Virus record (IMG/VR): IMGVR_UViG_2698536681_000004
Length of the DNA: 42,656 nt
DNA from: a virus
Lineage: Duplodnaviria > Heunggongvirae > Uroviricota > Caudoviricetes
Strand: one strand, 5' to 3'
Position 1 is the stretch's first letter. Each line of letters opens with the position of its first letter. Under the pieces are notes generated by a model. It saw only the letters and a list, made by a program, of their open reading frames with translations, had not been told where the DNA came from and did no database searches. Shown here piece by piece: positions 3,301 through 42,000 of the stretch. Position numbers and translations under genes: made by a program.

Positions 3301-3337
3301 CAGCAGCCGCTTAGGCTGTCTATAGCGCGGCGATTTT

Positions 3338-3405
3338 TTTGATACCGATTTGCATTTCATTTGATACCGCTGAAAAACGCCGATACGCAACTTATTTGAT
3401 ACTAA
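3338..3405. repeat. Prophage right end (attR-like): three closely spaced TTTGATAC(C/T) motifs, putative transposase binding sites
   Basis: TTTGATACCG at 3338-3347 and 3360-3369, TTTGATACTA at 3395-3404; the same motif occurs three times in reverse complement at the other prophage end. Confidence 0.6.
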
Positions 3406-3448
3406 ATCGGCGCTTTTCTTTTGAGTTTTAGAATGAGTTTTTAAGCGT

Positions 3449-4186
3449 TCATTCACTCTCTTTCAAACCAGTTTTAACTGTTTGTGGTTTTGGGTAAGGC
3501 TGGACTTTGAATAGCTTTGTGTTAAGGCGTTTTCTGGCTCTCTTGTCCAGAAACCGGATGTAACGAAACTGACGGAATTTATGAACACTGGCTCTGTCGA
3601 TATTAGCCCGCAGATGTTCACCTCGCTGTCCTCCTCGTTTGATTGCATTCTTGCAAATCTCGTGATACCACTCGCCATCAAGTTCATAGAATGTTGTTTC
3701 ATGACTGCCTACATAATCAAAATTGCTTGCCTGGTACACGACACCAAGACAGCCACAACGCTCATCTGCAAACGACTGAACCCACTGCACCTGCGGATAA
3801 AGTTGTCTGATTAGTTTGAGCGCGTAACTGATTGCCCTTGATTCGGAGTTTCTCGGCATACAGTCATGCAGCCATAACCGGTTAAGCTCCATATATTCGC
3901 GGTTCTGCGTGCCAGTTACGACGCGTGCACCATTGTTTGGATTAAGGGCATAACCCCATTGCATTACGCCAACCAGCTCCCGTTCTGAAAATATGCCCAG
4001 ATGAAGGTAGGAATTATTTACGAAACGATGGCTGTAATGTTTATTGACGACGACCAGCCGGGCCAGCCAGCAACTTATTGTCTCAACCCGTAACTCACGG
4101 GAGCCATAACCGACGATATTGTCGTTATAGTGAATAAGTTCAGGCGTGCTGATGATACGGGATGTAACTTGCTTTCTGTTCCCCAC
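3449..4186 (-). CDS. mom: Mom-like DNA modification protein (start internal to the long ORF, approximate)
   Basis: ORF overlaps the 3' end of com exactly as mom does in Mu and is the last gene before the prophage end; the longest ORF (to 4381) would run through com so the true start is internal, candidate GTG at 4186; Mom family assigned by synteny. Confidence 0.55.
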
Positions 4187-4340
4187 GACAGGATTTCCTT
4201 GTGTATGTGGGGTGCTCTGTGGCGCTCTGAGATGTGATTTGATTGAGGGTTTTACAGCGCGGACATTTAACTTCCAGATAACTGAAGCTGGCTCGTGCCA
4301 GTAGCTTGTTACAATGTCGGCACCGTATGTTTCGATACAT
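4140..4340 (-). CDS. com: Com-like zinc-finger translational activator of mom
   Basis: ATG at 4340 preceded by AGGAGG; product [27 protein letters not shown] has the CxxC...CPRC zinc finger and strong similarity to Mu Com as recalled (IRCKNCNKLLFKA...IEIRCPRCK). Confidence 0.75.
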
Positions 4341-4383
4341 GGCCGCATAACCTCCTGCTTTGTTGTTGATATCTTTATCACTC

Positions 4384-4408
4384 AATCGATCGACAAAAAC
4401 GATCGATT
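4384..4408. promoter_or_regulatory. Perfect 9-bp inverted repeat with a GATC Dam site in each arm, upstream of com-mom
   Basis: AATCGATCG (4384-4392), 7-nt spacer ACAAAAA, CGATCGATT (4400-4408); GATC at 4388-4391 and 4401-4404, a third GATC at 4470-4473; sits about 45-70 bp upstream of the com ATG. Confidence 0.4.
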
Positions 4409-4596
4409 TGATTTATTTAATTGATACAACAAATAACACGAAATGTCATTAGCGAAAATTTATGAGTTTGATCACTAATTTTAAACGGTGCTGTAACGCA
4501 TAAGTGCTGAATGATTGTACATTTGAATACCGCAAAGCAAACAAATCAACTAATTTATAGAAGTCAATTGGTTAATTGCCAGCGTAAGAGGCTGCT

Positions 4597-4890
4597 ATGG
4601 ACAATCATGTAACGACGAGAAATCGAAAAATGATTGAAAATGCGGAAATCTATAATGATTATTTTTCCGATTATTCAGATGCCTGCAAATACAGTTCGAG
4701 TGCGGGAGAGTTCATATGCTTCAACTTTTTTATTAAATCTTATGTTTTTCCTCCACAGCAAGAAGATGGAGGTGTGCCACCTCCTGAAATCACTTTGCAC
4801 CGTATAGCCTCCGTCTCAATGATGGAGCAACAGGCTAATGAGCTGTATAGCATTCTGGGAACGATTCTACAAAAGCGTGAATCGGACTAA
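4597..4890 (+). CDS. Hypothetical protein, AT-rich ORF divergent from com-mom
   Basis: 97-codon ORF with AAGAGG 6 nt upstream of the ATG; AT-rich composition unlike the flanking phage genes; no family recognised. Confidence 0.4.
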   Translation: MDNHVTTRNRKMIENAEIYNDYFSDYSDACKYSSSAGEFICFNFFIKSYVFPPQQEDGGVPPPEITLHRIASVSMMEQQANELYSILGTILQKRESD

Positions 4891-5057
4891 TGATACCGGT
4901 TCATTTGCCTGCCCGGATGGGGAAGCAGGATTGACTGCTCCATAAGCAGCTATATTTCTGAATACGAAATACTATCCAGCGATTACATATGGCTGGATAG
5001 CGGCAAAGATGTTTTCATTAGTGTCAAACCGGCAGAGGACACCACCGGTTTGTATTG

Positions 5058-5312
5058 TTACATCATGGTACTGTCAGTTCCGGGCTGAGCCGGGTCTGGT
5101 TGCTCTGGCTGCGCGTCGGTTTTCGGCTCATTATCAGCATCACTGGCCGCAACTGCTGGCCCAATAAGTTTTGCCAGCACTTCATCAACGTAAGTGTCGA
5201 TTTGTGCCTCAAAATCCTTGCGGACCTGCGCTTTCAGCAACTTATTTACTTCACCGGAATACAGTGCCTGTTTTACCAGGTCTTCAGTGACGGTGCCTTT
5301 AATTTCTGGCAT
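5058..5312 (-). CDS. Hypothetical small acidic protein
   Basis: 84-codon ORF with AGGAGG 6 nt upstream of the ATG at 5312; no family recognised. Confidence 0.5.
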   Translation of the reverse strand: MPEIKGTVTEDLVKQALYSGEVNKLLKAQVRKDFEAQIDTYVDEVLAKLIGPAVAASDADNEPKTDAQPEQPDPAQPGTDSTMM

Positions 5313-5347
5313 GTATATCCTCCTTATGCGGGAATAAAGCCCTGCAA

Positions 5348-5530
5348 TCAGGGCTGGGTCGGGTCTTTTGGGAGCGGAGTTACCTGCGCTGTTTTACTGA
5401 GTTTTTCAGCTGCTGCGTCCTCAATTTTGCGGCGAACATAATTTCTGATGGCCTTATAACCACCACTCACCAGATATAACGCACATACTGCCGTGCAGAA
5501 ATACAATAAAATAAGCTGTAAAAATGTCAT
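5348..5530 (-). CDS. Hypothetical small membrane protein (single N-terminal transmembrane helix)
   Basis: ATG at 5530 preceded by GGGAGGG; product MTFLQLILLYFCTAVCALYLVSGG then a basic tail; no family recognised. Confidence 0.45.
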   Translation of the reverse strand: MTFLQLILLYFCTAVCALYLVSGGYKAIRNYVRRKIEDAAAEKLSKTAQVTPLPKDPTQP

Positions 5531-5579
5531 TATCCCTCCCAATTATTGACATGGTGTTGACACCGGTAATATCTGTTAG

Positions 5580-5667
5580 GTAAAAAGGTGCACTGCATTT
5601 TTTGCTTTGGATATAACGATCTTTTTGCCGCCGGTTTCTTGTTTTCCCTTACCGGCGGCATTTTTTT
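5580..5667 (+). ncRNA. Candidate small RNA (promoter-like hexamers plus strong intrinsic terminator, no ORF)
   Basis: TTGACA at 5546-5551 and 5557-5562, TAATAT at 5567-5572, then about 85 nt downstream a terminator; lies in the intergenic space between two minus-strand genes. Confidence 0.25.
5626..5667 (+). terminator. Rho-independent terminator, plus strand
   Basis: Perfect 10-bp stem TGCCGCCGGT (5626-5635) / ACCGGCGGCA (5651-5660), 15-nt loop, followed by TTTTTTT (5661-5667). Confidence 0.6.
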
Positions 5668-5674
5668 ATCCTGC

Positions 5675-7729
5675 TTACGCGTTATTCACTTCCACCACGA
5701 TACTGTCAATCAGTACCGGGTAAGTCGCATTTTTAGTGATATCGGTCACGCGCAACTTGTCTGCCGTAAACGTGCCGACCGGAGACTGCGACAGCATGAA
5801 TGGTGTCCCGTCCTTACCATCAATGACCGGCGTCACCTCAATACTGTTGTTACCGGCAAAACGGAAGCCCAGCGTATGCCATTCGTTATTAAATGCGCCG
5901 AATGACCCCAGCTTCGTGTTCTGCGCCGTGTTTCCTTTGTGATACATCACGTTAAGGTCTGTGGCATCGCTCTGTACGTAGAACGATGCCAGCAGGTTAT
6001 GACCGGCATTTCCTTCCAGAGTAACCCCTTGCGGCAGGGCAGAAACCGGCCAGTACAGCGCCAGTGCGTACTGATTAGCCGTAAGCGCGCCATCGAGTTT
6101 AAAACGACAACTGACAAGACCACCTTTACCCAGCAGGTCCGCACCATTACCAGCATCATGCTCAAGGTACCAGGGGGCTCTTCCTGTTTCCTTGGTCAGT
6201 TTCATTGCCTTACCCCCGCTGGCTCCGGCATCATCCACGATTTGAGCCTTGCCACCTCCGGCAGCCCAACCCTGTGGTGTCAACCGTCCTTCAGACTCAG
6301 ATGCCCGGTAAGCAAATAGCGTACTCATCGTCGTGGTGTCTGCGGGTGGCGTGGACGGTTTTGATGGTGTATCAGGTGACGGCTTCTCATCCGGTGGTGT
6401 CACGGTCTGCCCACGCATCAGTTCAGCCGTGCGCCCTGCATGGAGCATAATAGCTGAGGCCAGACGGTCTGAAATGACGCCCCTGCGTGCCCATGAGCTG
6501 AAATGGCTGTCACGCTGTGTCGAAACAAAACTGCCCTGGGTTCGGGATGCTGCACCGTAATACCCGACAGCCACAATATCCGGGTCTTCCGCCGGAGCAT
6601 TCGTTGGCGTGCTCTGTCCATTCTCATCCGTCAGGAACGGTACAAAGAAAATTTTCTGTGCTTCCTTGCCTTTGTAGCCACCGTATACTGCCTCATATTT
6701 ATCGGTGCCAGCGTTTTTCCAGTAATACGTGGTATCACCGCAAATCCACGGCACCGTGGTGGCATTTCCACTCACGCACTGCGCAGCAAGCGGAGCCAGG
6801 TCAGTTCTGAACTGCTGAACCATGGCCGTGAATAAACTATTATGCTGCTGGCTTCCTGAGGCAAGGTCTGCCTCTCCCTGCATCCAGACCACAGCCAGAA
6901 GTTTGTTTTTCGGGTTTTTCGCCAGCGCGACTTTGGTGCGGCTTACCAGGTCCTGATACAGAGGTTTACCGGCCCCCCAGCGTGAAGAATCAGCGGAAGC
7001 ACCGCTGGCCTCACTGAATGAGCCGTCGGCTCCAGTGGTGAATGCTGACCCGCCACGACAACAGGGCACCAGAAGTATCCCGGCATTCTGTGGGATATAG
7101 GGAAGCAGTTTTTTGGCAATATGCAACCCCTGACCGACAGTCCCGTACTGGCCTTTTGCCAGATCAGCTTTCGGGTGGTTTATCCCGCTCATATCCTGAA
7201 CATCATGCAGGCAGTGGTCTGCCGGAATGATGTCGTTGTATGTACACGACGTACCGTTGGGCGTTACCGTACTGCGGCGTGCCAGTTGCTTAATGCGTGG
7301 GTCCGGGCGGTCAAACGAATCCGGTAACGGCAGCCCCTCGCCGTAGGCCATGCCATTTGACTGACCCGCGAGAATGACAACAAAGTAATATTCCGGCTCT
7401 GAACTGCTGCCATTCGTGCTACCGGAAGGCCCGGCGTTATCCGGTGCATTCCAGTCGGAGGGCGTGAGCGTTCCGGCCACGTCAGATGTGATTGGAATGA
7501 TGCCAGTCACGCCTGAACTGGTGATTTCTGCACTGGGATTACCGGATACCGGCATTACCCATAATGGCTCTTTCGTGCTGAAGCGGATCACGCAGTCTGC
7601 GAAGGTGATCCCCCCTTTATTACCCGAAGGGCGGAAAGGGCTTTCAATAAATGCCACCGTGCCACCGGCAACCTTGACTGAAAACTCTCCGGGCATGGCG
7701 GAGAGCATTTTCCACTTGGAGTCTGACAT
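5675..7729 (-). CDS. NanS-p-like sialate O-acetylesterase family protein (SGNH/DUF303 esterase with C-terminal lectin-like domain)
   Basis: Catalytic-type motifs VVILAGQSNGMAYGEG and VVWMQGEADL typical of SASA/DUF303 esterases; 684 aa, comparable to prophage NanS-p esterases. Confidence 0.65.
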   Translation of the reverse strand: MSDSKWKMLSAMPGEFSVKVAGGTVAFIESPFRPSGNKGGITFADCVIRFSTKEPLWVMPVSGNPSAEITSSGVTGIIPITSDVAGTLTPSDWNAPDNAGPSGSTNGSSSEPEYYFVVILAGQSNGMAYGEGLPLPDSFDRPDPRIKQLARRSTVTPNGTSCTYNDIIPADHCLHDVQDMSGINHPKADLAKGQYGTVGQGLHIAKKLLPYIPQNAGILLVPCCRGGSAFTTGADGSFSEASGASADSSRWGAGKPLYQDLVSRTKVALAKNPKNKLLAVVWMQGEADLASGSQQHNSLFTAMVQQFRTDLAPLAAQCVSGNATTVPWICGDTTYYWKNAGTDKYEAVYGGYKGKEAQKIFFVPFLTDENGQSTPTNAPAEDPDIVAVGYYGAASRTQGSFVSTQRDSHFSSWARRGVISDRLASAIMLHAGRTAELMRGQTVTPPDEKPSPDTPSKPSTPPADTTTMSTLFAYRASESEGRLTPQGWAAGGGKAQIVDDAGASGGKAMKLTKETGRAPWYLEHDAGNGADLLGKGGLVSCRFKLDGALTANQYALALYWPVSALPQGVTLEGNAGHNLLASFYVQSDATDLNVMYHKGNTAQNTKLGSFGAFNNEWHTLGFRFAGNNSIEVTPVIDGKDGTPFMLSQSPVGTFTADKLRVTDITKNATYPVLIDSIVVEVNNA

Positions 7730-7800
7730 CGTCTTTTCTGCCTGTTTCTGAATTAAACAGAGTCAGAATAGCGACCGCTGAAAAATATGTGTTTTGCGGA

Positions 7801-7834
7801 AATTCAAAAAAGCGTCACGGTACTTTTGGTGACG
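7801..7834 (-). terminator. Intrinsic terminator overlapping the invertase stop codon
   Basis: Stem CGTCAC (7813-7818) / GTGACG (7829-7834) with a 10-nt loop; on the minus strand followed by CTTTTTTGAATT. Confidence 0.5.
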
Positions 7835-8391
7835 GAGCTGGTGAGGCAGGAAAATAACGATAAAGGGTGGAAAGGCCAATATCAAATATCAGTGCGATTT
7901 GTTTACGGGACTCGCCATTAGCCAGCAAACGGGCGATTTGCTCCCGCTCTTTCTCTGTCAGTTTCTGAGGTCTGCCGCCATGACGCCCCTGAGCACGGGC
8001 AGCAGCAAGACCCGCGCGTGTACGTTCAATAATGAGTTCCCGCTCCATTTCCGCCAGCGCGCCCATTATATGGAAAAAGAAACGTCCCATGGGAGTGGAT
8101 GTATCAATATTGTCCGTAATGCTGCGGAAGTTAACGCCGCGTTGCCGGAGTTCTTCTGTTAAAAGGACAAGGTGCTGCATACTGCGTCCAAGGCGATCCA
8201 GTTTCCAGACCAGCAGGGTATCCCCTGGCCGGAGTCGCTTTAATGCGCGTTTAAGTCCGGGACGCTCCCTTGTCTTACCGCTTATTCTGTCTTCGAAAAA
8301 CAGCTCACATCCTGCACATTCCAGCGCATTTCTTTGTAGCGCCGTATTCTGGTCATTTGTTGACACCCTGATATACCCAATNNNNNNNNNN
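7815..8391 (-). CDS. gin: Serine recombinase, DNA invertase of the Gin/Pin/Hin family (first codons lost in the assembly gap)
   Basis: Translation IGYIRVSTNDQNTALQRNALECAGCELFFEDRISGKTRERPGLKRALKRL...GRFFFHIMGALAEMERELIIERT is near-identical in pattern to Gin/Pin; reading frame runs into the N-run at 8392. Confidence 0.9.
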
Positions 8392-8723
8392 NNNNNNNNN
8401 NNNNNNNNNNNNNNNNNNNNNNNNNNNNNNNNNNNNNNNNNNNNNNNNNNNNNNNNNNNNNNNNNNNNNNNNNNNNNNNNNNNNNNNNNNNNNNNNNNNN
8501 NNNNNNNNNNNNNNNNNNNNNNNNNNNNNNNNNNNNNNNNNNNNNNNNNNNNNNNNNNNNNNNNNNNNNNNNNNNNNNNNNNNNNNNNNNNNNNNNNNNN
8601 NNNNNNNNNNNNNNNNNNNNNNNNNNNNNNNNNNNNNNNNNNNNNNNNNNNNNNNNNNNNNNNNNNNNNNNNNNNNNNNNNNNNNNNNNNNNNNNNNNNN
8701 NNNNNNNNNNNNNNNNNNNNNNN
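8392..8723. other. Assembly gap (332 N)
   Basis: Uninterrupted run of n characters. Confidence 1.
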
Positions 8724-8883
8724 CAGGCAGGTAATGTACGGTGGGGCATATTACTCTGCGTACGGTAATGTTATGGCAGGCCTGCAGATTGACAGTAAAG
8801 TTGATGCTTCAAACGATTTTATAGCATTCAGACCCCTGCAAAAATTAGTCGGAGGTACATGGATTACGGTATCTCAGTTATAA
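8724..8883 (+). CDS. C-terminal fragment of an alternative tail fibre variable domain (5' part in gap)
   Basis: Last 52 codons before TAA at 8881-8883 end ...FRPLQKLVGGTWITVSQL, homologous to the C-terminus of the minus-strand tail fibre (...[18 protein letters not shown]). Confidence 0.45.
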
Positions 8884-8934
8884 ATAGTCAGTAAATAATA
8901 TATTTTAAAACAGATTTATTTCCAGGAGGATTTT

Positions 8935-9456
8935 ATGGAACTAAAAAATATAACCCGTTATTATCCTGAAAATATGCCATATGGTAATAATGTTCAGTAT
9001 TTCCAGAGTGAAGATGGTAAGGATTTCTACGAATCCCTGCCATTATTCACCAAAAAATATAAACTTTGCATAACACCTGACAGCGGCGTTATCTGCTCAA
9101 TATCACAGGACGCCTCGGCGCTGTATCCTGCGGGGTTTTCTGTGGTTGAGGTCGATGAACTCCCTGAAGGCACGGATATTTCAGGAAACTGGAAGTTTGA
9201 TAATGGCATAATCTCCCGTATTCCGGTTAACTACGCAAGAAAACTGGAAGCAATGCGCCAGTCATATCTTAATCAGGCATATGAAAAAATTAATGACTGG
9301 AGAACGGAGCTACAACTGGGCACCATCAGCGATGAAGACAGAGCAGCACTTACCCAATGGATGGCATACATCAGTCAGGTGAAGAAAATGGAACTACCCG
9401 CCATTAAAACAGAAGCTGAATTTAACGCCATTAAATGGCCTGAGCAGCCACAGTAA
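8935..9456 (+). CDS. tfa: Tail fibre assembly protein (Tfa/U-like)
   Basis: CAGGAGG 7 nt upstream of the ATG; C-terminal region LTQWMAYISQVKKMELPAIKTEAEFNAIKWPEQP resembles the conserved Tfa C-terminus; follows the alternative fibre tip on the same strand. Confidence 0.75.
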   Translation: MELKNITRYYPENMPYGNNVQYFQSEDGKDFYESLPLFTKKYKLCITPDSGVICSISQDASALYPAGFSVVEVDELPEGTDISGNWKFDNGIISRIPVNYARKLEAMRQSYLNQAYEKINDWRTELQLGTISDEDRAALTQWMAYISQVKKMELPAIKTEAEFNAIKWPEQPQ

Positions 9457-9459
9457 TAA

Positions 9460-9479
9460 AGAAGGCCGGAAGGCCTTCT
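9460..9479. terminator. Hairpin between convergent tfa and tail fibre genes
   Basis: Perfect 8-bp stem AGAAGGCC/GGCCTTCT with GGAA loop; weak flanking T-runs. Confidence 0.35.
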
Positions 9480-9487
9480 GAATATCA

Positions 9488-10369
9488 TTATATACTTGCA
9501 GCCGTCACCCATGCTCCATTTAACAGATACTGCAACGGCCGGTAATACACGCCGCCGACGTTATCTGCCGTATTCTTACCGACATCCTGTACTTTAATTC
9601 CGGTAAGAACATTGCCGCCCCCCAGATTCAGATCCCAGCTTTCCCATGTTCCGGGCATATGTGCGGTCACCGACCCCAGTCTTATGGCGGTTACTGTTCC
9701 TGATGAGATAGTGATATCCTGCGTCCCGTCAAAGGGAACACCATTAATTGTGTGGGCATTTGCCAGCCTGTTCGCGGCAACGGCGGTGCCGTCCGATGGC
9801 AGGGCATTCGCCGCCCTGTTTACCGTTTCCCGTAAACCGACGTTATCGATAAAAGCCCCTTTATCCGGAATGTCTGCGCCGTTCTGCTCCCTGCGCAGGT
9901 AACGGTTATCACCTTCGCTTTTGCTGTAAACATCCAGATTATTACGGGCGGTTCCCTTATTCTCCAGGTCGGCGAGATTCTGATCCTTCGCCAGGGCATT
10001 AACGTCAGCGGGACCAAGACTGTTTTTTGTGGCAAGCGTCCCCAGACCAAGATAACCACGGGCCAGACGCTGGGCCTCCGCACCGGCATCAGCAATTTCT
10101 TTCAGGTTATTTTTCCGGGAAAAGGCATTCGCAGCGATAATGGCTTTAATGGACAGCGTAAGCTGGTTTAACTGCGCCTTATCCGGCTGAATACTGGCTT
10201 CAGCCAGAATATTCAGCAGTTCGGCCTGGAGAATATTCAGCCAGTCCTGACCAATCCAGCTGATACCTTTTTGTCCGTCACCTTCGGTAAACCAGGTGGT
10301 GGTATTACTCTGCGCCGGTGCCAGCGCAGGCATATTCGCCACGCCGGAATTATTATCAACATGAAACAT
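9488..10369 (-). CDS. Tail fibre protein (Mu S-like; constant N-terminal part joined to a variable C-terminal part)
   Basis: Last gene of the tail/baseplate operon, followed by tfa and invertase; contains an internal gix-like recombination site. Confidence 0.75.
9827..9852. other. Candidate Gin/Pin-type recombination site (gix-like) inside the tail fibre gene
   Basis: TTCCCGTAAACC GA CGTTATCGATAA compared with gixL as recalled TTCCTGTAAACC GA GGTTTTGGATAA; encodes residues about 171-180 of the fibre. Confidence 0.55.
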
Positions 10370-30768: not shown

Positions 30769-30778
30769 ACCTTTTTCC

Positions 30779-33599: not shown

Positions 33600-33600
33600 A

Positions 33601-33744: not shown

Positions 33745-34069
33745 TATGTATCCCCTGTAATTCCGGCAAGGCCGAAAGATGGCACCAGTGCGTCACCTGT
33801 CCGTCCTCATCTTCAAGGCAGGCTCCGGTTTCTTCATCAATAAAAAAGCCTTCATACCCCATATGGCCGATGCGCAGTTCCTGTTGGTCACCATACTGAA
33901 CAATCAGCACGACAGCCTCCATATCAGGCGGAAATGCGTCATCCAGTGAATGCCAGGGATAACCGCGCAAATCCCCGAAATAAACGCCGGTCAGCGTTCC
34001 GCCACAGAGCGGCATTCCGGCGGCACACACAAGAGGTTCATCTGATTCAACAAATAAGGTCGTTATCAT
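33737..34069 (-). CDS. Hypothetical protein
   Basis: 110-codon ORF in early operon with overlapping start/stop. Confidence 0.45.
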   Translation of the reverse strand: MITTLFVESDEPLVCAAGMPLCGGTLTGVYFGDLRGYPWHSLDDAFPPDMEAVVLIVQYGDQQELRIGHMGYEGFFIDEETGACLEDEDGQVTHWCHLSALPELQGIHNG

Positions 34070-34617: not shown

Positions 34618-34620
34618 GCA

Positions 34621-35136: not shown

Positions 35137-35669
35137 TACGCCACCTCCGCAGATATCCCGGCAGGCGCTGCTGTCCGGTCAACAATCAGGTAGCGCAGAA
35201 CATGTTCAGTGATATTCCAGCCGCTTAAACCGCAGATAATGACGCCCAGGCGTATGTCGATATACGCCATCACAAACTGGGGCACGCCTTCTTTCATGGC
35301 CTGCTCATCAACTTCAGCCACCACATAAACGGTTTCACAGGTCAGAACGCCCTGAGCAAATTCCCACGCCATCGACGGAATATCATGCCCCTCAATCCAT
35401 GGCAGGGATTTTCTGAAGCCGCACCACTGAACATCATCAGCCGCAGATTCCTGGCTGCATTTGCGACGAACCGGCTGCACCGGGCGGGGACGCGGAATAT
35501 CATAAAAACCGTTACATTCCGTCAGCACGCCTGCATCAACCGCATCACGCAGAAAATAAACCATGGAGGATGGCGGCATATTCATTTTTTCAGCCAGTAC
35601 ACCGCAGGTCAGGCGGCCATAAATACACAGCCAGTTTTTAACCCCTTCAAGCACTTTTGCATCAATCAT
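35136..35669 (-). CDS. Hypothetical protein
   Basis: 177-codon ORF in early operon. Confidence 0.45.
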   Translation of the reverse strand: MIDAKVLEGVKNWLCIYGRLTCGVLAEKMNMPPSSMVYFLRDAVDAGVLTECNGFYDIPRPRPVQPVRRKCSQESAADDVQWCGFRKSLPWIEGHDIPSMAWEFAQGVLTCETVYVVAEVDEQAMKEGVPQFVMAYIDIRLGVIICGLSGWNITEHVLRYLIVDRTAAPAGISAEVA

Positions 35670-35814
35670 GATTTATTTCCCCACCACATTATTAATGACG
35701 ATATAAACGTATTTCATATTTCTTAACCCTTATTTTCTGTTTTCAGGCGCAAGCAGTCCCCTGACGCGAGCGCCATAATTAAAATGAAGTGATATTTAAT
35801 TGATTAATGCGGTG

Positions 35815-36345
35815 TTATTTATTCAGTCCGGCGTCCTGTTCAAAAGGCTCGACATAAAAACTTTCAGCGCCTTTATTCACCTTGATACCGGCAATGCCTT
35901 TCACAGCATCCGGCTCCGCCAGGACGGCTTCCTTGTTCACTTCCTCTTTCGTGCGGATGAAACGCTCAAGCCCCATACGGCGCAGCATTTCAATCACACC
36001 TTCCACATCACGGCTGACGCTGCATGATGGCGTTCCCAGCCGCCATGACACCGTTCCGGTGGTCAGATTGGCTGTTTTGGTTTTGCCGCCGTTCGTCAGC
36101 TCATCACGGTTGGTTTTGCACCAGTCCTGAATCCCTTTAAAAAGCACTTTGATTTGCTTTTTAAGATTTTCAATCTGCGGCGTATAACGGGCGGTGATTT
36201 CTGCCACTTCGTCATTCATCGCCGTTTCCAGGCGCAGCGCCTCTCGCTGAATATCTCCCAGGGTGCGGATATCACGGCTGACTTCTTCCCGGGTCTGCGG
36301 TGCCGCCTCGGCTGCGGCCTTTAATTTTGTAACGCGTTTAGCCAT
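35815..36345 (-). CDS. gam: Host-nuclease inhibitor Gam (Mu Gam, Ku-like)
   Basis: Translation ...IRTLGDIQREALRLETAMNDEVAEITARY...CKTNRDELTNGGKTKTANLTTGTVSWR...RFIRTKEEVNKEA closely follows Mu Gam as recalled. Confidence 0.8.
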   Translation of the reverse strand: MAKRVTKLKAAAEAAPQTREEVSRDIRTLGDIQREALRLETAMNDEVAEITARYTPQIENLKKQIKVLFKGIQDWCKTNRDELTNGGKTKTANLTTGTVSWRLGTPSCSVSRDVEGVIEMLRRMGLERFIRTKEEVNKEAVLAEPDAVKGIAGIKVNKGAESFYVEPFEQDAGLNK

Positions 36346-36356
36346 TTTGTTTTTCC

Positions 36357-36650
36357 TTATTGCAGTGTGCCTGATGCTTTATGCACGCGGTGGCGTTTAA
36401 TGATGGCATCCGCTCCAAAAGACTGTGCAGATGCCTGAAATTCCGCTGAGAGAAACTGAATAATTGCAGGACTGTGATACTGGAGAATACTTGCATAAAC
36501 GTCACAGAGTGACGTCGGCCTGTTATCCGTATCACGTTCTGTTTTCACATCCACTCCAATCTTTTCATGCACTTCAACACAGTCATTGCCTGCCAACTTT
36601 TCGTCATGCGAAACATGATTAAATTCAAAAATAACGCGTACTTTGCTCAT
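36357..36650 (-). CDS. Hypothetical protein, tandem paralogue A (start at internal ATG)
   Basis: Begins MSKVRVIFEFNH, matching the N-terminus of the adjacent upstream gene. Confidence 0.45.
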   Translation of the reverse strand: MSKVRVIFEFNHVSHDEKLAGNDCVEVHEKIGVDVKTERDTDNRPTSLCDVYASILQYHSPAIIQFLSAEFQASAQSFGADAIIKRHRVHKASGTLQ

Positions 36651-36654
36651 GGAA

Positions 36655-36927
36655 TTACCCCTGTTGATTAAATTCATTACCGTTAATAACCCCGGAAGCC
36701 ATGCCTCTGTCTTTCATGAATGCACTGGCTTTCATTGCCACAAACTCTGCGAAGTTTCTGCTTTCTGCCAGCATAACCACCCCAAAAATCATGGCGGGTC
36801 CATTATCTTTCTTCTTTATTCCGGTTGAACGTATATCCAGACTTACCCCTCTGTGCGTGCTGCCATCAGAGTTTTTGCAGATAACATCTTCCTTGTATTC
36901 GAAAATAATGCGTACGACTTTACTCAT
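36655..36927 (-). CDS. Hypothetical protein, tandem paralogue B
   Basis: Begins MSKVVRIIFEYKED; DNA around both starts is also similar. Confidence 0.45.
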   Translation of the reverse strand: MSKVVRIIFEYKEDVICKNSDGSTHRGVSLDIRSTGIKKKDNGPAMIFGVVMLAESRNFAEFVAMKASAFMKDRGMASGVINGNEFNQQG

Positions 36928-37205
36928 CCTCTGGTCCTCGTTCTGTTTGGATAACTGACCCGGCGTCTAACCTCACGGCAGAACCGAATCATGGCATTAA
37001 AGGCTTCTTCCTCCGTCACCGCTTCCGGTATCCCCGGAACCAGTAACTGCTCCTGTTCATCACGTCCATGACGCGCCATAACCTCAATCACATGCCGTAC
37101 CGTGGCAGGCTTTCCGGCAACTATCGGCAATGCACCTTCCGGCAGGACGTAACCAAACTCAATAAGACCACTCGACCACGCCCATGCAATGAGATTTTTT
37201 TTCAC
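36924..37205 (-). CDS. Hypothetical protein
   Basis: 93-codon ORF in early operon. Confidence 0.4.
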   Translation of the reverse strand: MKKNLIAWAWSSGLIEFGYVLPEGALPIVAGKPATVRHVIEVMARHGRDEQEQLLVPGIPEAVTEEEAFNAMIRFCREVRRRVSYPNRTRTRG

Positions 37206-37206
37206 C

Positions 37207-37473
37207 TCACACCTCCCAGTAAACCGTGCAGCCGCTGATGCGGGTGGCCTTCACACGGCGGCGCAGGCCGTTGGTCTGTATGGTGATTTCAATTTCACCG
37301 GTTCCCTGCACGTTGCCTACCGGCGGCGTGGTTTTCAGTGCAAAACGTTGCGGATAGCGCTTACTGCGTTCCAGTACCGCACCGGCAAGTTCGGTCAGAC
37401 GGCGCGCGCTGTTCAGGGAGTCGAATAAATTCATTTTGTTACCGCAGGATTGCATATTCATATAACACCTCAT
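37207..37473 (-). CDS. Hypothetical protein
   Basis: 88-codon ORF in early operon. Confidence 0.4.
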   Translation of the reverse strand: MRCYMNMQSCGNKMNLFDSLNSARRLTELAGAVLERSKRYPQRFALKTTPPVGNVQGTGEIEITIQTNGLRRRVKATRISGCTVYWEV

Positions 37474-37701
37474 TTAGCTGACTTGTTTCGCACCAACAGA
37501 ACGGCATATTCCGCTGTAAACTTCTGTCGCACCTTCGCGATCAAGTCCGGCAGATATCACCATTCGTGTGCGGTCATTAAATTCAAAAAGTAAATCGCCA
37601 CATTCTTTATTTTCGGCCAGTGAAATCACCTTCACGTTATCGAAATTAACCAGGTAAAAGCGTCCGTAAATATCAGGAATATTAAATACCGCCATAATCA
37701 C
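37474..37701 (-). CDS. Hypothetical protein
   Basis: 75-codon ORF immediately downstream of B. Confidence 0.4.
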   Translation of the reverse strand: MIMAVFNIPDIYGRFYLVNFDNVKVISLAENKECGDLLFEFNDRTRMVISAGLDREGATEVYSGICRSVGAKQVS

Positions 37702-38639
37702 ACCTGTGAGAGTAATTCAGGGTTGGTATAAACCTCTTTAAAGGCCGCATTAATATGTTTTTCTGTCAGCGCCGCGCCTTCACCGCTGGCGGTGAGCCAC
37801 GCCTGGTTAAGCGTATGTGTCAGAACGCGTAACGCTCCCGGCTTTTCAGCGATAGCCTGCATGACGGCCAGCTCGGCCTCACCACTGATCCCCCACGCCA
37901 TGGCAATGGCCAGCACATCCGCCTTTTTGGCCTTGCGAAGTTGTTTTGTACGGGCAAGACGGCTGAACAGGCGCGATAAATCATCAAAGGCGCGGCGTCC
38001 ACCTTTAAACAATCCGCGCGGGTTACCAATAAGCACCATCCCGATCCCCGTGGCGTCCTGAATTGCCCGGAGTTGCTCCAGACCGTCAATACCAAGATGA
38101 TCCGCCTCATCCACAATCACCAGTCCACGCGTTCCCATCAGGCGACGGCGGATGGCGCGGGATAATGCCCCTTTGTTCGCGCGGGTGTAATCAATCCCCA
38201 GCGCATCGGCCAGCTCCAGCAGACACTCCGTGACGCTGGAGTGCGCGGGTGACAGGGTGATCATCCAGGTGTTTGGTTGCTCCTGGCAGTAATTACGGGC
38301 AGTGGCCGTTTTACCCACACCCGGTACGCCCACAATAACGTTAATACAGCCCATCAGGCGAACCGCCTGAAACAGTGCGCGCAGCTCCTGGACTGTCTGA
38401 GTTTCCACAAACTGCGGCGGTTCCGGCAGTGCGCTTTGTTTATTCCAGTTCTCATACCAGGAGCGCAGGGAAGCAGCCACAGCAGCGTTATCGCCTTTAT
38501 ATTTTCCCTTACGGAAAGCCGATAATGTGCCGTCGGAAATTCCCGCCTCTCTGGCGATGGCATACTGCGTCAGTACGCCGCCATCAATAAGTTCATCAAT
38601 GGTCTTGATTACATCGTTAATATCGGTCATATTATTCAC
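37698..38639 (-). CDS. B: Transposition ATPase B (MuB-like)
   Basis: N-terminal helix-turn-helix, Walker A GVPGVGKT, and position directly downstream of the transposase. Confidence 0.8.
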   Translation of the reverse strand: MNNMTDINDVIKTIDELIDGGVLTQYAIAREAGISDGTLSAFRKGKYKGDNAAVAASLRSWYENWNKQSALPEPPQFVETQTVQELRALFQAVRLMGCINVIVGVPGVGKTATARNYCQEQPNTWMITLSPAHSSVTECLLELADALGIDYTRANKGALSRAIRRRLMGTRGLVIVDEADHLGIDGLEQLRAIQDATGIGMVLIGNPRGLFKGGRRAFDDLSRLFSRLARTKQLRKAKKADVLAIAMAWGISGEAELAVMQAIAEKPGALRVLTHTLNQAWLTASGEGAALTEKHINAAFKEVYTNPELLSQV

Positions 38640-38712: not shown

Positions 38713-40800
38713 TCAGGCCAGCGGATCACTTTCTTTTAATTTCGCTTCGAGCAGTTGCAATCCCCGCTGGAAATTACGCTCGTATTCTTCATCAGGTTCA
38801 TCGTCAGCGACCGGTTGCTGAACGGTCACCGTATTACCCACAGGGCGGTATATGTTTTCCAGCCAGGGCTCCTGCGGCTTGTGCTCCAGCACGTTGACAA
38901 CCTCATCCTCGGCATCACGGATTTTTTCCTCTGCGCGTTTACGCATGCCTTTAAGGCGCTGCTGCTGTTTGTAGTATTCCGCGCTGACAGGGAAGGCTTC
39001 GCGTTTATTGCCGTCCCATACCGCCTCGCAAATCACGCTGCCATCCGGGCGGCGCACGGTAATTCGTTCGGCATCATGAATGTCATAGCTGATAAGTACC
39101 TTACGGCCATGCTCGTCACGCAGCTCGGGCGCGTAGTAAATATTATTCAGCCAGCGTATTTCACAGCGTCTTACAGGGCGCTCCACCATCGGCCGGAACA
39201 TATCCCGCAGTTCAACATCGGACAGCCATTCAATTTCCGTGTCCTCTTCCGCCAGGCGTTTTTTTCTGAACTCCGCCGGGCTGTAATGTTTACCGTTCGG
39301 CTTCATGGGTAATTCATCGTGCGGCCGGTTGTTGTACCACTCAACACCGTCACGAATGGCATCAATCAGTTCAGACCAGGACGGTAAATCACGCATCGCT
39401 GACTGCTGCCGGGCGTTCAGCCGTTTGCCCTGTTGCAGGGCACTGAATGCCGAGCGTAAATCGCGGTTGGTTTTACGTAACGTCTCGCGATCTGCTCCTT
39501 TCCCGAAATAGGTGCGGTATTTACGGGCTATGCGCATCGGTAATGTGCGGTTAAGCCGTTCGATAATGCCCCGTCCCTGCGGATTACCGGCAATCCCTGT
39601 CGGGTGATTAATCCCCAGTCGTGGCAGTATCCCCACAATCTCCTTATCCAGGACGTCGGCGGTTTCCCCGGAGCCATTATCCGAGTAATACAGAAACGGT
39701 TTGCCATGATGGCGAATACCGTGCTGTATGGCACCGGCTACGGCGAAAACATTTTCAGCCAGGTCAAGGCTCCAGCCCACCACAAAGCGCGTGCCACCGT
39801 CGATAACAAAGGTCACTTCCGGTGCGAATGGCCGCCCGTGAACCGGGTGCGCGCATTTCAGCTTCATGCCGTGACCGTCACCAATCCAGACATAATTCAC
39901 CGGCATTCTGGACCAGTCGCGGCGCGTGAATCCCTCAAGCTGACGGTATTCACTGCCAGTTACCCGGCCTTTTTGTTTCACCACTTCCGGCAGTTTCTTC
40001 ATTGCGCGGCGAATGGTGTCATAAGAGGGCATGATATCGAGCATATAAGGCTCATCAGCGTGCCGGTGCTGCCATTCAGCAACAAAATCCTCGTAAGCCT
40101 CGGTCATTGGTCGGCCGTTTGACTGGCGATACTGCGCCAGAAATTCGGGCAGCCAGTTAATATCTTCGGCTTTTATTTCCTGGCGTTTACCCGGTGCCAG
40201 TAAAAGCAGGCGTTCAGCGGCGTTCTGTGCCTTGTTAAAGGCCGCAATCCAGCGTTTCAGCGTGATTTCACTCAACGCGCGGCTGTTTCCCTTTTTGGCG
40301 TTCGCCGTCTCAACCATTGCCACAATGCGCTCGTCCAGTTGTGATCGTGCCAGGCTGTTAACGAGGAACCGGATAGCTTTAGCGCAGCTGAAACCGGGTT
40401 GTTGCGTGAATTTCAGCACCTCACTGACGATCGCAATGCGTGCGTCTGCCACCTGGCGCTGGTTTTCAGTCAGGGCATTGAGGCGTTCGACCATCAGTTG
40501 TGGTGATCCGCGATATGCCTCCACCGCATCAACCACGGCAGACGAGCGTCTGGCCTTTGTCACCACCGGAGCCGGTGATTCATCGGCTTTTTGCGTCATC
40601 AGTTGCAGGGCATAACGTTCGCGTAATGCCTGCTGTGTCACTTCAGGTAAACAGTCAATGCTGTATTCAAAACCTTTAGCGCCTTTCTTGCGGCGTCTGC
40701 TGGTTTCGCTGGTTGCATACTTCCTGATTGAATAGCGAACGCCTTGCTCCGTTCCCGGCATCCCCGGTAATCCAACCAGTTCTTTAACTGAAGCAAACAT
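38713..40800 (-). CDS. A: DDE transposase A (MuA-like)
   Basis: 695-aa product with N-terminal DNA-binding region and central integrase-like core; follows ner. Confidence 0.85.
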   Translation of the reverse strand: MFASVKELVGLPGMPGTEQGVRYSIRKYATSETSRRRKKGAKGFEYSIDCLPEVTQQALRERYALQLMTQKADESPAPVVTKARRSSAVVDAVEAYRGSPQLMVERLNALTENQRQVADARIAIVSEVLKFTQQPGFSCAKAIRFLVNSLARSQLDERIVAMVETANAKKGNSRALSEITLKRWIAAFNKAQNAAERLLLLAPGKRQEIKAEDINWLPEFLAQYRQSNGRPMTEAYEDFVAEWQHRHADEPYMLDIMPSYDTIRRAMKKLPEVVKQKGRVTGSEYRQLEGFTRRDWSRMPVNYVWIGDGHGMKLKCAHPVHGRPFAPEVTFVIDGGTRFVVGWSLDLAENVFAVAGAIQHGIRHHGKPFLYYSDNGSGETADVLDKEIVGILPRLGINHPTGIAGNPQGRGIIERLNRTLPMRIARKYRTYFGKGADRETLRKTNRDLRSAFSALQQGKRLNARQQSAMRDLPSWSELIDAIRDGVEWYNNRPHDELPMKPNGKHYSPAEFRKKRLAEEDTEIEWLSDVELRDMFRPMVERPVRRCEIRWLNNIYYAPELRDEHGRKVLISYDIHDAERITVRRPDGSVICEAVWDGNKREAFPVSAEYYKQQQRLKGMRKRAEEKIRDAEDEVVNVLEHKPQEPWLENIYRPVGNTVTVQQPVADDEPDEEYERNFQRGLQLLEAKLKESDPLA

Positions 40801-40802
40801 AA

Positions 40803-41033
40803 TTACGCGACCTTACGAATGTAGCGGCTGGGCCAAATCTCCTCGGGCGGCACCCCCAGGCATTCCGCGATAATCCCCTCATACTTGGGAACATGGCGGT
40901 ATACCGCGTTGTACAGATTGTTCTGACCCACGCCAGCTTTACGGGCCAGCGCCCTCATGCTTCCTTCTCTGGCTCTGACTTCCCCCAAAATTCTTTGAGG
41001 ATGCCAATCAGGCTTAACTTCATTTCTCGCCAT
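40803..41033 (-). CDS. ner: Ner-like DNA-binding regulator
   Basis: Translation ...VKPDWHPQRILGEVRAR..SMRALARKAGVGQNNLYNAV...EEIWPSRY parallels Mu Ner as recalled. Confidence 0.75.
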   Translation of the reverse strand: MARNEVKPDWHPQRILGEVRAREGSMRALARKAGVGQNNLYNAVYRHVPKYEGIIAECLGVPPEEIWPSRYIRKVA

Positions 41034-41218
41034 GATTCATCTATCCTAAAAAGTTACGAAATTTGATAACTAAACTTAGTTATCAAGTTTGATATAAGTA
41101 TTGATCCACTTCTGCTTCATGTAAAGCAAAAAAAACATCTTTCTTTTGTCTATTGTGGATCAATGGTTGCTGACAACACTAAAAGTTAATAATTTCAAAT
41201 TGATAGGAAGAAAAGAAA
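41034..41218. promoter_or_regulatory. Divergent early/repressor control region with operator-like palindromes
   Basis: Perfect palindrome TTGATAACTA AACT TAGTTATCAA (41063-41086) and inverted repeat ATTGATCCAC (41100-41109) / GTGGATCAAT (41155-41164), both arms of the second containing GATC. Confidence 0.5.
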
Positions 41219-41764
41219 ATGAACAAGCAAACAACAACATCTCTTTCTTTTCCTGGTGGTAGAAAAGAAAGCATTGCTGAGCGTCTGAAAAGGCTGATTG
41301 GCTCCCGCAGCGTCAGAGCTGCAGCAAGAGATTGGGGGCTTTCATTTTCAACACTAAACAATTATCTGTCTCGTGGCACTGAGCCATCCTTAAGTGTCGC
41401 CCTTCAGATTGCGTCTATCGAAGGAGTAAGTGTTGAGTGGCTATGTGGATTCAGTGATGCATCACAAGTGAATCGGTGTGAGATCAAGGAAAATCAAGAT
41501 GAAAGCAAGAAGATAATTATGACGATTATCAGCGCACTTGATGAAAAAGACTTAGAGCAGCTATCGAAAAATTTGGTTCTGAATGGAGCCAAGTACTTAG
41601 CTCGGTTGTTAGAGCCTGAAAATCAAGATCTAATCCGCTTAGAAGGAAGGAAAAGAATAGCTGCATTACAGCTTGAAGGTATGTCTGACGAACGCGTCAG
41701 AGAGATTTTGGAAGAAACTGAGAGAAGTCGCAAATCTAACGCGGTAGAACCAAAAGCGGGTTAA
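41219..41764 (+). CDS. c: Prophage repressor (c-like, helix-turn-helix)
   Basis: Divergent from ner across an operator-rich region; HTH-like segment WGLSFSTLNNYLSRGTEPSL; last gene before the prophage end. Confidence 0.6.
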   Translation: MNKQTTTSLSFPGGRKESIAERLKRLIGSRSVRAAARDWGLSFSTLNNYLSRGTEPSLSVALQIASIEGVSVEWLCGFSDASQVNRCEIKENQDESKKIIMTIISALDEKDLEQLSKNLVLNGAKYLARLLEPENQDLIRLEGRKRIAALQLEGMSDERVREILEETERSRKSNAVEPKAG

Positions 41765-41836
41765 TAGCATTAGCCCGCATTTTGCACTATATCGAGTATT
41801 TCGCATTGTTTGGAACGCCTTAAAAGACTAAAACCA

Positions 41837-42000
41837 CAGTATCAAATGAGTTGCCGATTTTATAATAAATGACTAATTATTGCACAATCGGTATCAAATA
41901 GACCTTATCCGCACATCTAGCCATCACCTGTTTTATTTCAGTATCTTACAGGTGATTTCACCTCCTTTCACTAAACCCCTTGTCGGTATCAAATGATTCA
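41837..42000. repeat. Prophage left end (attL-like): three spaced copies of the end motif in reverse complement, terminal CA at 42000
   Basis: CAGTATCAAATG (41837-41848), CGGTATCAAATA (41889-41900), CGGTATCAAATG (41985-41996); spread-out spacing contrasts with the compact set at the other end, as for Mu attL versus attR. Confidence 0.6.

Follow-up and report, generated by a model that had tools for sequence, protein, structure and literature searches.

Sp18, a Mu-like prophage of E. coli O157:H7 Sakai, is predicted to be intact, and its DNA is packaged efficiently and without circularization, though it is not inducible by mitomycin (PMC2669165). Sp18-like phages occupy variable loci and often lie within other mobile elements (PMC7430833, PMC10132054). 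Transposable phages more broadly have TG/CA termini as a rule and leave target duplications of 5 bp or 6 bp (PMC8705779). The prophage family considered here has been known since the Sakai genome and is already described as mobile, and as a prophage the element adds little. Its ends, the duplications that flank it, and the genes it carries are the subject of this report.

The window is the whole stretch of 42,656 nucleotides that was analyzed. With a probability of about 90%, positions 3321-42010 (minus strand) are a temperate transposable phage that belongs to the Sp18 lineage, is intact, and resides as a prophage within an IS66-family element that is itself defective. The prophage is 38,690 bp long, counting in a run of 342 N, and is collinear with its relatives and with Mu. 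The end corresponding to the Mu left (c) end is at 42010 and the one corresponding to the Mu right (mom) end at 3321, with the Mu gene order running in reverse in the window. The original prediction of a near-complete Mu-like transposable prophage at 3316-42000, with a full Mu-type gene set in Mu order and mostly intact reading frames, came close. The element is in fact complete, every gene named was found, and comparison with 14 other insertions moves the limits slightly, to 3321 and 42010.

Ends, target duplication and insertion site

The right (attR-like) end at 3321-3402 (plus strand) begins 5'-TATAGCGCGG... and holds closely spaced TTTGATAC repeats at 3338, 3360 and 3395. The left (attL-like) end at 41839-42010 (minus strand) reads ...CCTGGTTATA-3', finishing in GGTTATA-3', with TTTGATAC at 41986-41993, 41891-41898 and 41839-41846. 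This spacing, one copy at the tip and two further in, is the Mu attL pattern. The window has seven TTTGATAC occurrences, of which six fall within 175 bp of the termini, three per end and inverted (chance expectation 0.94), and by their arrangement these six are candidate transposase-binding sites at both ends. Transposon-type ends, whose absence would have spoken against the original prediction, are thereby accounted for. The termini themselves, TATA...T(T/C)ATA, carry TA instead of TG/CA, and the combination of TG...CA with 5 bp that marks Mu proper is not what is found here.

The element is bordered by TGTC at 3317-3320 and again at 42011-42014, and removal of 4 bp restores the reading frame of the interrupted IS66 tnpB. 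The junctions were compared across 15 different insertion sites, made up of the copy here and 14 others. All 15 sites are duplicated, with 4 bp in 14 of them and 5 bp in one, and in all eight insertions with 4-bp duplications that were tested, the target gene comes back into frame once 4 bp are taken out. The duplicated targets tend toward Y-N-N-R. A 5-bp duplication with shifted ends was considered and rejected, every alternative placement failing for 14 of the 15. A search of E. coli genomes with the joined flanks for an empty site returned two-piece matches only, and the duplication is therefore established by reading-frame restoration. IS66 matches in strain 23CRST047 had pointed to an identical insertion site but come from IS66 copies that lie inside that strain's prophage. 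The literature search found no mention of a 4-bp duplication for Mu-like phages, and duplications are not reported in the papers on SuMu and SfMu.

The insertion point is the 3' end of tnpB in a defective IS66-family element. The left flank (2772-3320, minus strand) holds the last 13 codons of tnpB and, after them, a tnpC with an internal deletion (152 aa). The right flank (42015-42548, minus strand) holds the tnpB of the same element (Pfam TnpB_IS66, 1.2e-37) and the upstream tnpA. The two-piece match suggests that the internal deletion in tnpC removed about 1.08 kb.

Among 5,426 complete E. coli genomes, at least 227 (~4%) carry relatives that are 91-100% identical, at differing loci. Independent copies break sgrR, rhs, a diguanylate cyclase gene, xdhA, elyC, sorM and flgL, and further ones break cheB, bcsA, citF, hsdR, a fimbrial usher gene, motA and a desulfhydrase gene. 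Copies that are 99.6-100% identical disrupt different genes across unrelated strains. These near-identical copies in different genes, the target duplications, and the efficient packaging of Sp18 DNA in Sakai (PMC2669165) suggest that the element may be active. Annotations of the relatives list no tyrosine integrase or excisionase, only a Gin-type invertase.

Gene content and its intactness

The repressor gene (41219-41764, plus strand) encodes a 181-aa HTH_3/CI-type protein; among Mu proteins it has no significant similarity (best E 0.091), and no peptidase domain was detected in it. The divergent regulatory region beside it (41034-41218) contains an early-promoter-like site, TTTACA-17-AATACT, reading from 41125 to 41097 on the minus strand. 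The same region holds a perfect palindrome, TTGATAACTAA-ac-TTAGTTATCAA, which by its position is a candidate operator. Then follows a Ner-like regulator of 76 aa (40803-41033, minus strand; 45% to Mu Ner, HTH_35 1e-21).

Transposase A (38713-40800, minus strand) is a DDE enzyme of 695 aa with Pfam matches to Mu-transpos_C (2.1e-17) and HTH_Tnp_Mu_1 (1.3e-8), the Mu DNA-binding domain. Its residues D308 and D374 align with D269 and D336 of MuA, and E414 lies in GIIER, which fits the canonical G-x-x-E-R motif. Identity is 22.6% to MuA, 43% to the SuMu transposase and 81.6% to that of Yersinia phage vB_YpM_5. The original prediction of MuA and a Mu-type repressor thus holds for the presence of both genes and fails for their sequences, since A is so distant from MuA and the repressor is unrelated to Mu c. 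With TA termini and an A protein only 22.6% identical to MuA, details of the Mu transpososome may not transfer to this system. A scan of genome contigs with the transposase found two loci only, both at 74% identity, and a scan of these contigs for the exact junctions of the prophage gave no match. The adjacent MuB-type AAA+ target-capture ATPase (37698-38630, minus strand) has 310 aa and is 48% identical to Mu B (Phage-MuB_C 7.7e-25, AAA_22 4.3e-18).

The early/semi-essential region (33092-37695, minus strand) contains gp11-, gp12- and gp14-like genes, several small ORFs lacking a Mu homologue, and Gam (35815-36345, minus strand; 57% to Mu Gam). It is followed by a GemA/gp16 homologue (32509-33021, minus strand; 46% identical) and a transcription activator of the Mor/C family (32016-32438, minus strand; 140 aa). 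The latter is the sole Mor-family gene present. The mor gene of the original prediction is accordingly there as a family member, but as a single regulator nearer to Mu C (39.7%) than to Mor (27.8%), and with one such regulator the Mu middle/late cascade is not reproduced.

The lysis, head and tail modules follow the Mu order and lie on the minus strand. The lysis cassette (30249-31944) encodes a lysozyme, Rz, Rz1, a TraR/DksA-like protein and a homologue of gp25 (DUF2730). Its SAR-type endolysin (31444-31944) is a T4-type lysozyme with an E-x8-D-x5-T motif and an N-terminal Gly/Ala-rich, SAR-like segment (LIALVLAGAGTFTIAT), while the Rz and overlapping Rz1 spanins lie at 30779-31379. The packaging and head module (20044-30256; head genes at 20323-29963) comprises gp26, gp27, the large terminase TerL gp28 (72% identical), the portal gp29, F gp30, G, protease I, the major head protein T and homologues of gp35-38. 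The contractile tail and baseplate module (10369-20041) encodes sheath L, tube M, gp41, the tape measure, N, P and homologues of gp45-48, at 34-58% identity to Mu; the contractile-tail genes fall within 9488-20319. Overall, 38 proteins have counterparts in Mu, with 33-78% identity and in Mu order, and Pfam also finds Mor, Mom, Resolvase and Phage_lysozyme. Judged by sequence, the element is a mosaic in which the genes for structure and lysis, together with B, gam, gin and mom, resemble those of Mu (33-78% aa identity) and the module formed by c, ner, A and the ends belongs to a different clade. Yersinia phage vB_YpM_5 and Klebsiella phage Kp4866-3 have a module of the same clade.

Each of the 55 proteins annotated in the closest relative aligns here over its full length at 94.6-100% identity, free of stops, gaps and frameshifts, and the interruptions of A or B that the original prediction had offered as grounds for doubt do not occur. 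The sole hidden coding part among the 55 genes is the first two codons of the invertase, which lie under the N run. These observations bear on whether the prophage is instead a grounded, defective remnant that looks complete and can no longer transpose or form particles. Such a state is common among E. coli prophages (PMC2669165), and some relatives are damaged: JE86-ST05 has frameshifted tail genes, and 23CRST047 has two IS66 insertions and a frameshifted transposase. The N run also conceals 342 nt of this copy. Against this stand the full-length readable genes, the two intact ends with all six of their sites, and the complete identity of A and B to alleles at other chromosomal sites in other strains, which implies recent movement. 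A defective remnant is therefore unlikely, and an intact temperate phage is the preferred reading.

Invertible segment, cargo cassette and tRNA-like element

The tail-fiber host-range segment (8724-10369) contains S (9488-10369, minus strand; 293 aa), a convergent tail-fiber assembly gene (8935-9456, plus strand) and the end part of an alternative fiber tip (8724-8883, plus strand), with a gix-like crossover site at 9827-9852. The Gin-type serine invertase (7815-8381, minus strand; 74% to Mu Gin) has its first two codons masked by the run of 342 N at 8382-8723, a stretch that the first reading of the sequence overlooked. In the closest relative 285 bp stand in place of this run, and there the invertase gene starts, the second gix site lies and the alternative fiber tip begins; in this copy, because of the N run, neither the start of the invertase gene nor that gix site can be read. 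Strain 600029 has these three features in intact form. The low GC content of the bin at 8001-9000 was dismissed as a sign of AT-rich cargo, being an artifact of the N run.

A gap at this place could also mean that two contigs were joined across it by scaffolding and that the prophage is not one contiguous element. The run does fall at an invertible, repeat-bounded segment, and both outer flanks are repetitive IS66 sequence. However, the sequence on both sides of the gap has a collinear counterpart, identically arranged and oriented, in more than 200 genomes, the outer junctions share the 4-bp TGTC and jointly restore one tnpB frame, and the description of the sequence collection states that some stretches are masked as N. 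An assembly artifact is consequently very improbable, and the element is taken as contiguous.

Between the invertase and com-mom, both of which had been predicted and were found, the region carries a cargo cassette (5058-7729, minus strand) that Mu lacks and the original prediction did not mention. It consists of a NanS-p-like sialate O-acetylesterase gene (5675-7729; 684 aa), a DUF1378 gene (5348-5530) and a DUF826 gene (5058-5312), all on the minus strand. The central esterase domain of the NanS-p-like protein matches E. coli NanS (PDB 3pt5, 1.8e-117; Pfam SASA), and the C-terminal domain matches NanS-p (PDB 6yp6, 7.1e-98; Pfam DUF6645). With a NanS-type SGNH/SASA catalytic domain and a NanS-p C-terminal domain, the protein is a predicted NanS-p-type esterase. 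Residues 1-115 match no Pfam family, even at E values up to 10, and DUF1737 is absent. According to a 2026 preprint, DUF1737 is the capsid-binding domain of phi24B gp84 (bioRxiv 10.64898/2026.04.10.717836). The literature search found no NanS-p mentioned together with Mu-like phages.

A small AT-rich ORF of 86 aa (4630-4890, plus strand), with no family match, occupies a slot that varies among relatives, and a PADLOC scan of the cargo and small ORFs for defense systems gave no matches. The last genes before the right end are com (4140-4340, minus strand) and mom (3449-4186, minus strand), the latter 78% identical to Mu Mom.

In the gap between F and G, antisense to the late genes, lies a tRNA-like element (24474-24553, plus strand) with a promoter-like site at 24435-24464. 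It was found by a focused Rfam scan prompted by a "tRNA-OTHER" annotation in relatives and scores 31.0 bits against the Rfam tRNA model (gathering score 29) in that scan of a short stretch only; neither a whole-window Rfam scan at gathering thresholds nor ARAGORN found it. A longer variable hairpin takes the place of the anticodon arm, and CCA is not encoded. The element is conserved in the lineage, including Sakai Sp18, and is a side result of possible interest to specialists.

Proposed life cycle and comparison with known systems

Gene content and intactness, the build of the ends, the 4-bp duplications and the many insertion sites are shown by the sequences compared. We infer the order and regulation of the life cycle, and its present inducibility, from gene content and Mu biology. 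The CI/XRE-type repressor (41219-41764) would hold the leftward early promoter shut, and derepression would lead to transcription of ner, A, B and the early genes. Transposase A would then bind its three sites per end and, on target DNA brought in by the MuB-type ATPase, link the TA-3' termini to strands cut with a 4-bp stagger. Replicative transposition would copy the genome, after which the single Mor/C-type activator would switch on the lysis, head, tail and com-mom genes. The Mu-type terminase, portal and head proteins suggest headful packaging starting at the c end. The Gin-type invertase probably flips a segment of ~1.3 kb and so changes the tail-fiber tip, and the DNA would be modified by Mom. 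The SAR endolysin, the gp25-like protein and the spanins would lyse the cell.

Mu shares the order c, ner, A, B, gam, gemA, Mor/C, lys, packaging, head, tail, invertible fiber segment, gin, com, mom, and likewise has three transposase sites per end with attL/attR spacing. Unlike this element, Mu has TG/CA termini, a 5-bp duplication and two Mor/C regulators, against TA, 4 bp and one here. Its S gene is longer, and here the invertible segment has a single chaperone gene. The NanS-p/DUF1378/DUF826 cassette and the tRNA-like element are extra relative to Mu. Nucleotide similarity to Mu is ~22% (blastn, aligned fraction 0.32 at 69% identity), and megablast gave no match to Mu or D108. Genera are delimited by ICTV at about 70% nucleotide similarity, far above this value.

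The shared gene order and the clear homology of B, gam, gin, mom and the structural genes might suggest a member of genus Muvirus proper, a variant of Mu, D108 or SfMu working exactly like Mu with a 5-bp stagger. The distance to Mu in nucleotide sequence and in A, the unrelated c, the TA termini and the 4-bp duplications at 14 of 15 sites leave this hardly credible. Two further features of Mu proper are not found here either: a repressor with the same DNA-binding domain as MuA, and a cascade in two steps, first Mor and then C. The assignment is already contradicted by the tests run, and a separate Sp18-type phage is the reading kept.

For the cargo, the nearest counterpart is the NanS-p of Stx (lambdoid) prophages, which has the same esterase and C-terminal domains and is also followed by DUF1378 and DUF826 genes. 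In that case the carrier is lambdoid, whereas here it is a Mu-like myovirus and DUF1737 is missing. A predicted NanS-p-type esterase on a transposable phage would mean that a gene for mucin utilization or virion decoration can move outside lambdoid phages.

For the transposase, MuA is not the nearest relative. Those of SuMu (Haemophilus) and Mannheimia 3927AP2 are 43-45% identical to A and those of the Pseudomonas D3112/DMS3-type phages ~30%, all closer than MuA, but these phages have other hosts and other structural modules. The Yersinia phages vB_YpM_5 and vB_YpM_6, isolated as virions and classified in Muvirus, have a transposase 81.6% identical, the same TTTGATAC sites three per end, and TA termini. 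They differ in having late genes of Mu lengths and no NanS-p cassette, with ~26% nucleotide similarity to the element in the window, and because their F and G overlap there is no tRNA-like gap.

TA-3' termini combined with a 4-bp stagger do not appear among the rules given for transposable phages, namely TG/CA ends and duplications of 5 bp or 6 bp (PMC8705779). We suggest tentatively that the c-ner-A-ends module of the Sp18-type phages, vB_YpM_5 and Kp4866-3 may define a Mu-family transposase clade with these two traits, the Sp18-type late operon also containing a conserved and possibly independently transcribed tRNA-like RNA. A natural MuA-family variant with a 4-bp footprint, TA termini and a Mu-like B provides a comparison on how the geometry of the transpososome determines the stagger. 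Such a variant also matters for prophage-finding rules that presuppose TG/CA ends and scars of 5 or 6 bp.

Within the lineage, Sp18-like copies inserted in Stx phages of STEC are 91% identical to the element in the window. Sakai Sp18 has ~76% nucleotide similarity to it (0.895 aligned at 85%) and differs in its alleles for the repressor region, the small early ORFs, the F C-terminus and tRNA-like region, the fiber tip and the com-adjacent small ORF. It sits in sorM, whereas the copy here sits in IS66 tnpB. Gene order, cargo cassette and tRNA-like element are alike in the two, as are the ends (TATAGCGCGG... and ...GGTTA(C/T)A), the left end being identical and the right end one base different, and Sakai Sp18 is also flanked by a 4-bp duplication (TTTA).

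Identity and gene content of the prophage

The region from ~3321 to 42010 is a complete Sp18-type Mu-like transposable prophage, related to Sp18 of E. coli O157:H7 Sakai, and it is probably functional. It lies reversed in the window, with the Mu left (c) end at 42010 and the right (mom) end at 3321. When the window was compared by megablast with phage records and 5,426 complete E. coli genomes, this region matched "Mu-like phage" regions, among them copies within Stx phages, at 91% identity, and E. coli chromosomal prophages, at up to 99.6–100%. In 227 of the genomes, a single locus matches 80% or more of the window's right half. Because the family is already known and common, the element is nothing new as a prophage. 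Its nucleotide similarity is ~22% to Mu and ~76% to Sakai Sp18. The closest copy, from strain 600029, aligns in two blocks (3315–8381 and 8724–42013). Divergent sequence is ruled out for the gap between them, 8382–8723, which is a run of 342 N and also explains the window's low-GC bin.

The original prediction of a Mu-like transposable prophage was right in both observation and interpretation. Its reading of the frames as mostly intact also held: all 55 strain-600029 proteins map to the window with no stop or gap (47 at 100% identity), and only the invertase lacks full coverage, its first two codons lying within the N run. The full Mu-type gene set in Mu order is likewise present, with 38 Mu homologues arranged as in Mu. 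Among the early and regulatory genes, identity to Mu is 45% for ner, 48% for B (a MuB-type ATPase), 57% for gam, 68%, 55% and 49% for gp11, gp12 and gp14, and 46% for gemA. It is 40% for the endolysin, 33–63% for gp25–gp27, 72% for the large terminase gp28, 58% for the portal, 59% and 55% for the head genes F and G, 51% for protease I and 67% for the major head protein T. The tail proteins follow, with the sheath at 50%, tube at 48%, tape measure at 35%, N at 34%, P at 46%, gp45–48 at 50–58% and the S N terminus at 48%; gin, com and mom are at 74%, 45% and 78%. Pfam finds Mu-transpos_C and the Mu DNA-binding domain in the transposase A (38713–40800, −), as well as Phage-MuB_C, Mor, Phage_lysozyme, Resolvase and Mom. 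At its N terminus the endolysin carries a Gly/Ala-rich segment (LIALVLAGAGTFTIAT), followed by an E-x8-D-x5-T motif, a pattern characteristic of SAR endolysins of the Mu gp22 type. The genes after it are Rz, Rz1 (which overlaps Rz) and a homologue of gp25 (DUF2730). Each gene originally listed is therefore accounted for.

Ends and insertion site

The ends were set by comparing the window copy with eight insertions fetched in full and a further six fetched as pairs of ends, 14 in all. All copies start with 5'-TATAGCGCGGCGATTTTTTTGATAC and finish with ...CAAATGATTCACCTGGTTA(T/C)A-3', and the flanks are unrelated across the 15 insertions. These constant termini and unrelated flanks place the ends at 3321 and 42010 (38,690 bp), so the predicted limits of 3316–42000 were nearly right. 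TGTC lies outside both ends (3317–3320 and 42011–42014), and when exactly four bases are taken out, the flanks read as a single frame, which is that of an IS66-family tnpB at its 3' end (...DWRQPKRLLTSLTML, then stop).

Of 15 independent insertions, 14 have a target-site duplication of 4 bp (TGTC, TGTT, CACG, CGTA, CACA, TCTA, TTTA, TGCG, TGTA, CGTC, CGAA, GGTA, CTAA and GGGG); the remaining one, in cheB of TOE17, has 5 bp (TTTGG). For the nine copies fetched whole, the interrupted gene is restored when 4 bp (5 bp for TOE17) are taken out. The 4-bp duplications tend toward Y-N-N-R, with a pyrimidine first in 12 of 14 and a purine last in 11. Duplications of 5 bp for Mu and 6 bp for B3 are given in a 2021 review-style paper (PMC8705779); our literature search found no report of a 4-bp duplication for Mu-like phages.

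The target, an ISEc8/ISEc22-like IS66-family element (2772–3320 and 42011–42548), was probably defective beforehand. Its tnpC has lost ~1.08 kb, which leaves a 152-aa remnant in frame, as seen from two-piece megablast matches and Pfam coordinates. The deletion falls between short repeats. The left-flank genes (280–792, +, and 972–2718, −) comprise an IpaH-type NEL E3-ubiquitin-ligase C-terminal part, a DUF4376 gene and a lambdoid tail-fibre gene truncated at its N-terminal end, a context suggestive of a prophage remnant of Shigella, EIEC or pathogenic E. coli. Given this flank and the IS66 target, the Mu-like phage sits in an IS that itself lies in a prophage remnant. Sp18-like phages of STEC CC119 are described as doing likewise, 6 of 10 being inside mobile elements (PMC10132054).

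Against an expectation of 0.94, the window contains seven copies of the motif TTTGATAC. Six of them are at the ends, three per end and pointing inward, ~18, 40 and 75 bp from the tip for the mom end and ~18, 113 and 165 bp for the c end, a spacing that recalls the attR/attL sites of Mu.

Variable segments and a tRNA-like element

The N run falls exactly on the start of the invertase gene, the alternative fibre tip and the second gix site, and corresponds to 285 bp in the closest relative. A gixL-like 26-bp site (4 mismatches to Mu gixL) lies at 9827–9852 within the tail-fibre gene S, and its partner in the relative adjoins the invertase, in the stretch masked in the window. Between the gix sites are the last ~115 codons of S (−), a convergent tail-fibre assembly gene (8935–9456, +) and the end of the alternative fibre tip (8724–8883, +). 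Flipping of this segment would exchange one fibre tip for the other and place the chaperone gene within the late operon. The CI5 and M3 relatives lack the invertase and alternative tip.

NanS-p genes are known from Stx phages. While Mu has nothing between gin and com, the Sp18-type prophage carries a cargo cassette there, with a 684-aa NanS-p-like sialate O-acetylesterase (5675–7729, −). Its centre matches E. coli NanS (PDB 3pt5, E 1.8e-117) and its C terminus the NanS-p fragment 6yp6 (E 7e-98); a Pfam search matched no family in the first 115 residues. The phi24B homologue is on the capsid, with a DUF1737 anchor (2026 preprint, bioRxiv 10.64898/2026.04.10.717836). Stx-phage homologues have this capsid-binding domain, whereas the protein in the window lacks DUF1737 and its carrier is Mu-like. 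After the esterase gene come DUF1378 and DUF826 genes (5348–5530 and 5058–5312) and then a small variable ORF. Slots at 4630–4890 (+) and 33092–33599 vary among relatives and hold small ORFs without a family match; the genes at these positions are different in Sakai, CI5 and TOE17, the last of which has a DUF2513 gene. PADLOC matched no defence model to the cargo or small ORFs.

A conserved tRNA-like element (24474–24553, +) lies in the F–G intergenic gap, antisense to the late genes, where NCBI PGAP annotates "tRNA-OTHER" in every relative. A focused scan with the Rfam tRNA model (gathering score 29) gives it 31.0 bits; ARAGORN and the whole-window scan missed it. It has a 7–8 bp acceptor stem, canonical D-loop and T-arm sequences, and a long variable hairpin instead of an anticodon arm; CCA is not encoded. 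The Sakai allele (20641–20721, −, in locus L007) is 25% diverged and still scores 31.4 bits. Across seven alleles (window, Sakai and five from IMG/VR), 99.1% of cells are paired, and two acceptor pairs vary on both sides (UA/UG/CG and GC/AU). With 11 of 500 shuffles doing as well, support for conserved pairing in these alignments is suggestive but not strong. A predicted sigma-70-like promoter (TTGCCT-18-TAAAAT) ends 9 nt upstream, overlapping the Shine-Dalgarno sequence of G on the opposite strand. Among 50,697 phage records the region is limited to Sp18-type elements, and Mu and vB_YpM_5 lack it.

The left-end module compared with Mu

The transposase is only distantly related to MuA (22.6% identity, E 1.8e-12), with a DDE triad of D308, D374 and E414. 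Identity is 81.6% to Yersinia vB_YpM_5 and vB_YpM_6, 57% to Klebsiella Kp4866-3, 44.6% to Mannheimia 3927AP2, 43% to Haemophilus SuMu and ~30% to Pseudomonas D3112/DMS3-type phages. The repressor has a CI/XRE-type helix-turn-helix and no detectable similarity to Mu c. Between an early-promoter-like site and ner is a perfect palindrome, TTGATAACTAA-ac-TTAGTTATCAA (41063–41086), which may be an operator for Ner or the repressor.

Mu has separate mor and C genes, whereas the Sp18-type prophage has one Mor-family gene, 39.7% identical to Mu C and 27.8% to Mu Mor, in a position that is both that of mor (adjoining gemA) and that of C (just before lys). The termini also differ: Mu has TG/CA, conserved across all Mu-/B3-like phages described up to 2021 (PMC8705779), and the Sp18-type prophage has TA-3', with TATA at both ends in the window; the c end of some copies, that of Sakai included, reads TACA.

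The non-Mu transposase and repressor, the ends, the duplication, the single regulator and the low nucleotide similarity to Mu therefore make the element a mosaic, with a left-end module that differs from that of Mu on a Mu-like body. What is modestly interesting about the element is this non-Mu transposase module, with its TA ends and 4-bp footprint, together with its NanS-p-type cargo gene and its tRNA-like element. The TTTGATAC sites and TA termini also occur in Kp4866-3 and in the virion genome of vB_YpM_5. The latter (4560–4980 in locus L022), classified as a Muvirus, combines Mu-sized late genes with an Sp18-type c–ner–A–ends module, which shows that Mu-like phages exchange this left-end module as one unit.
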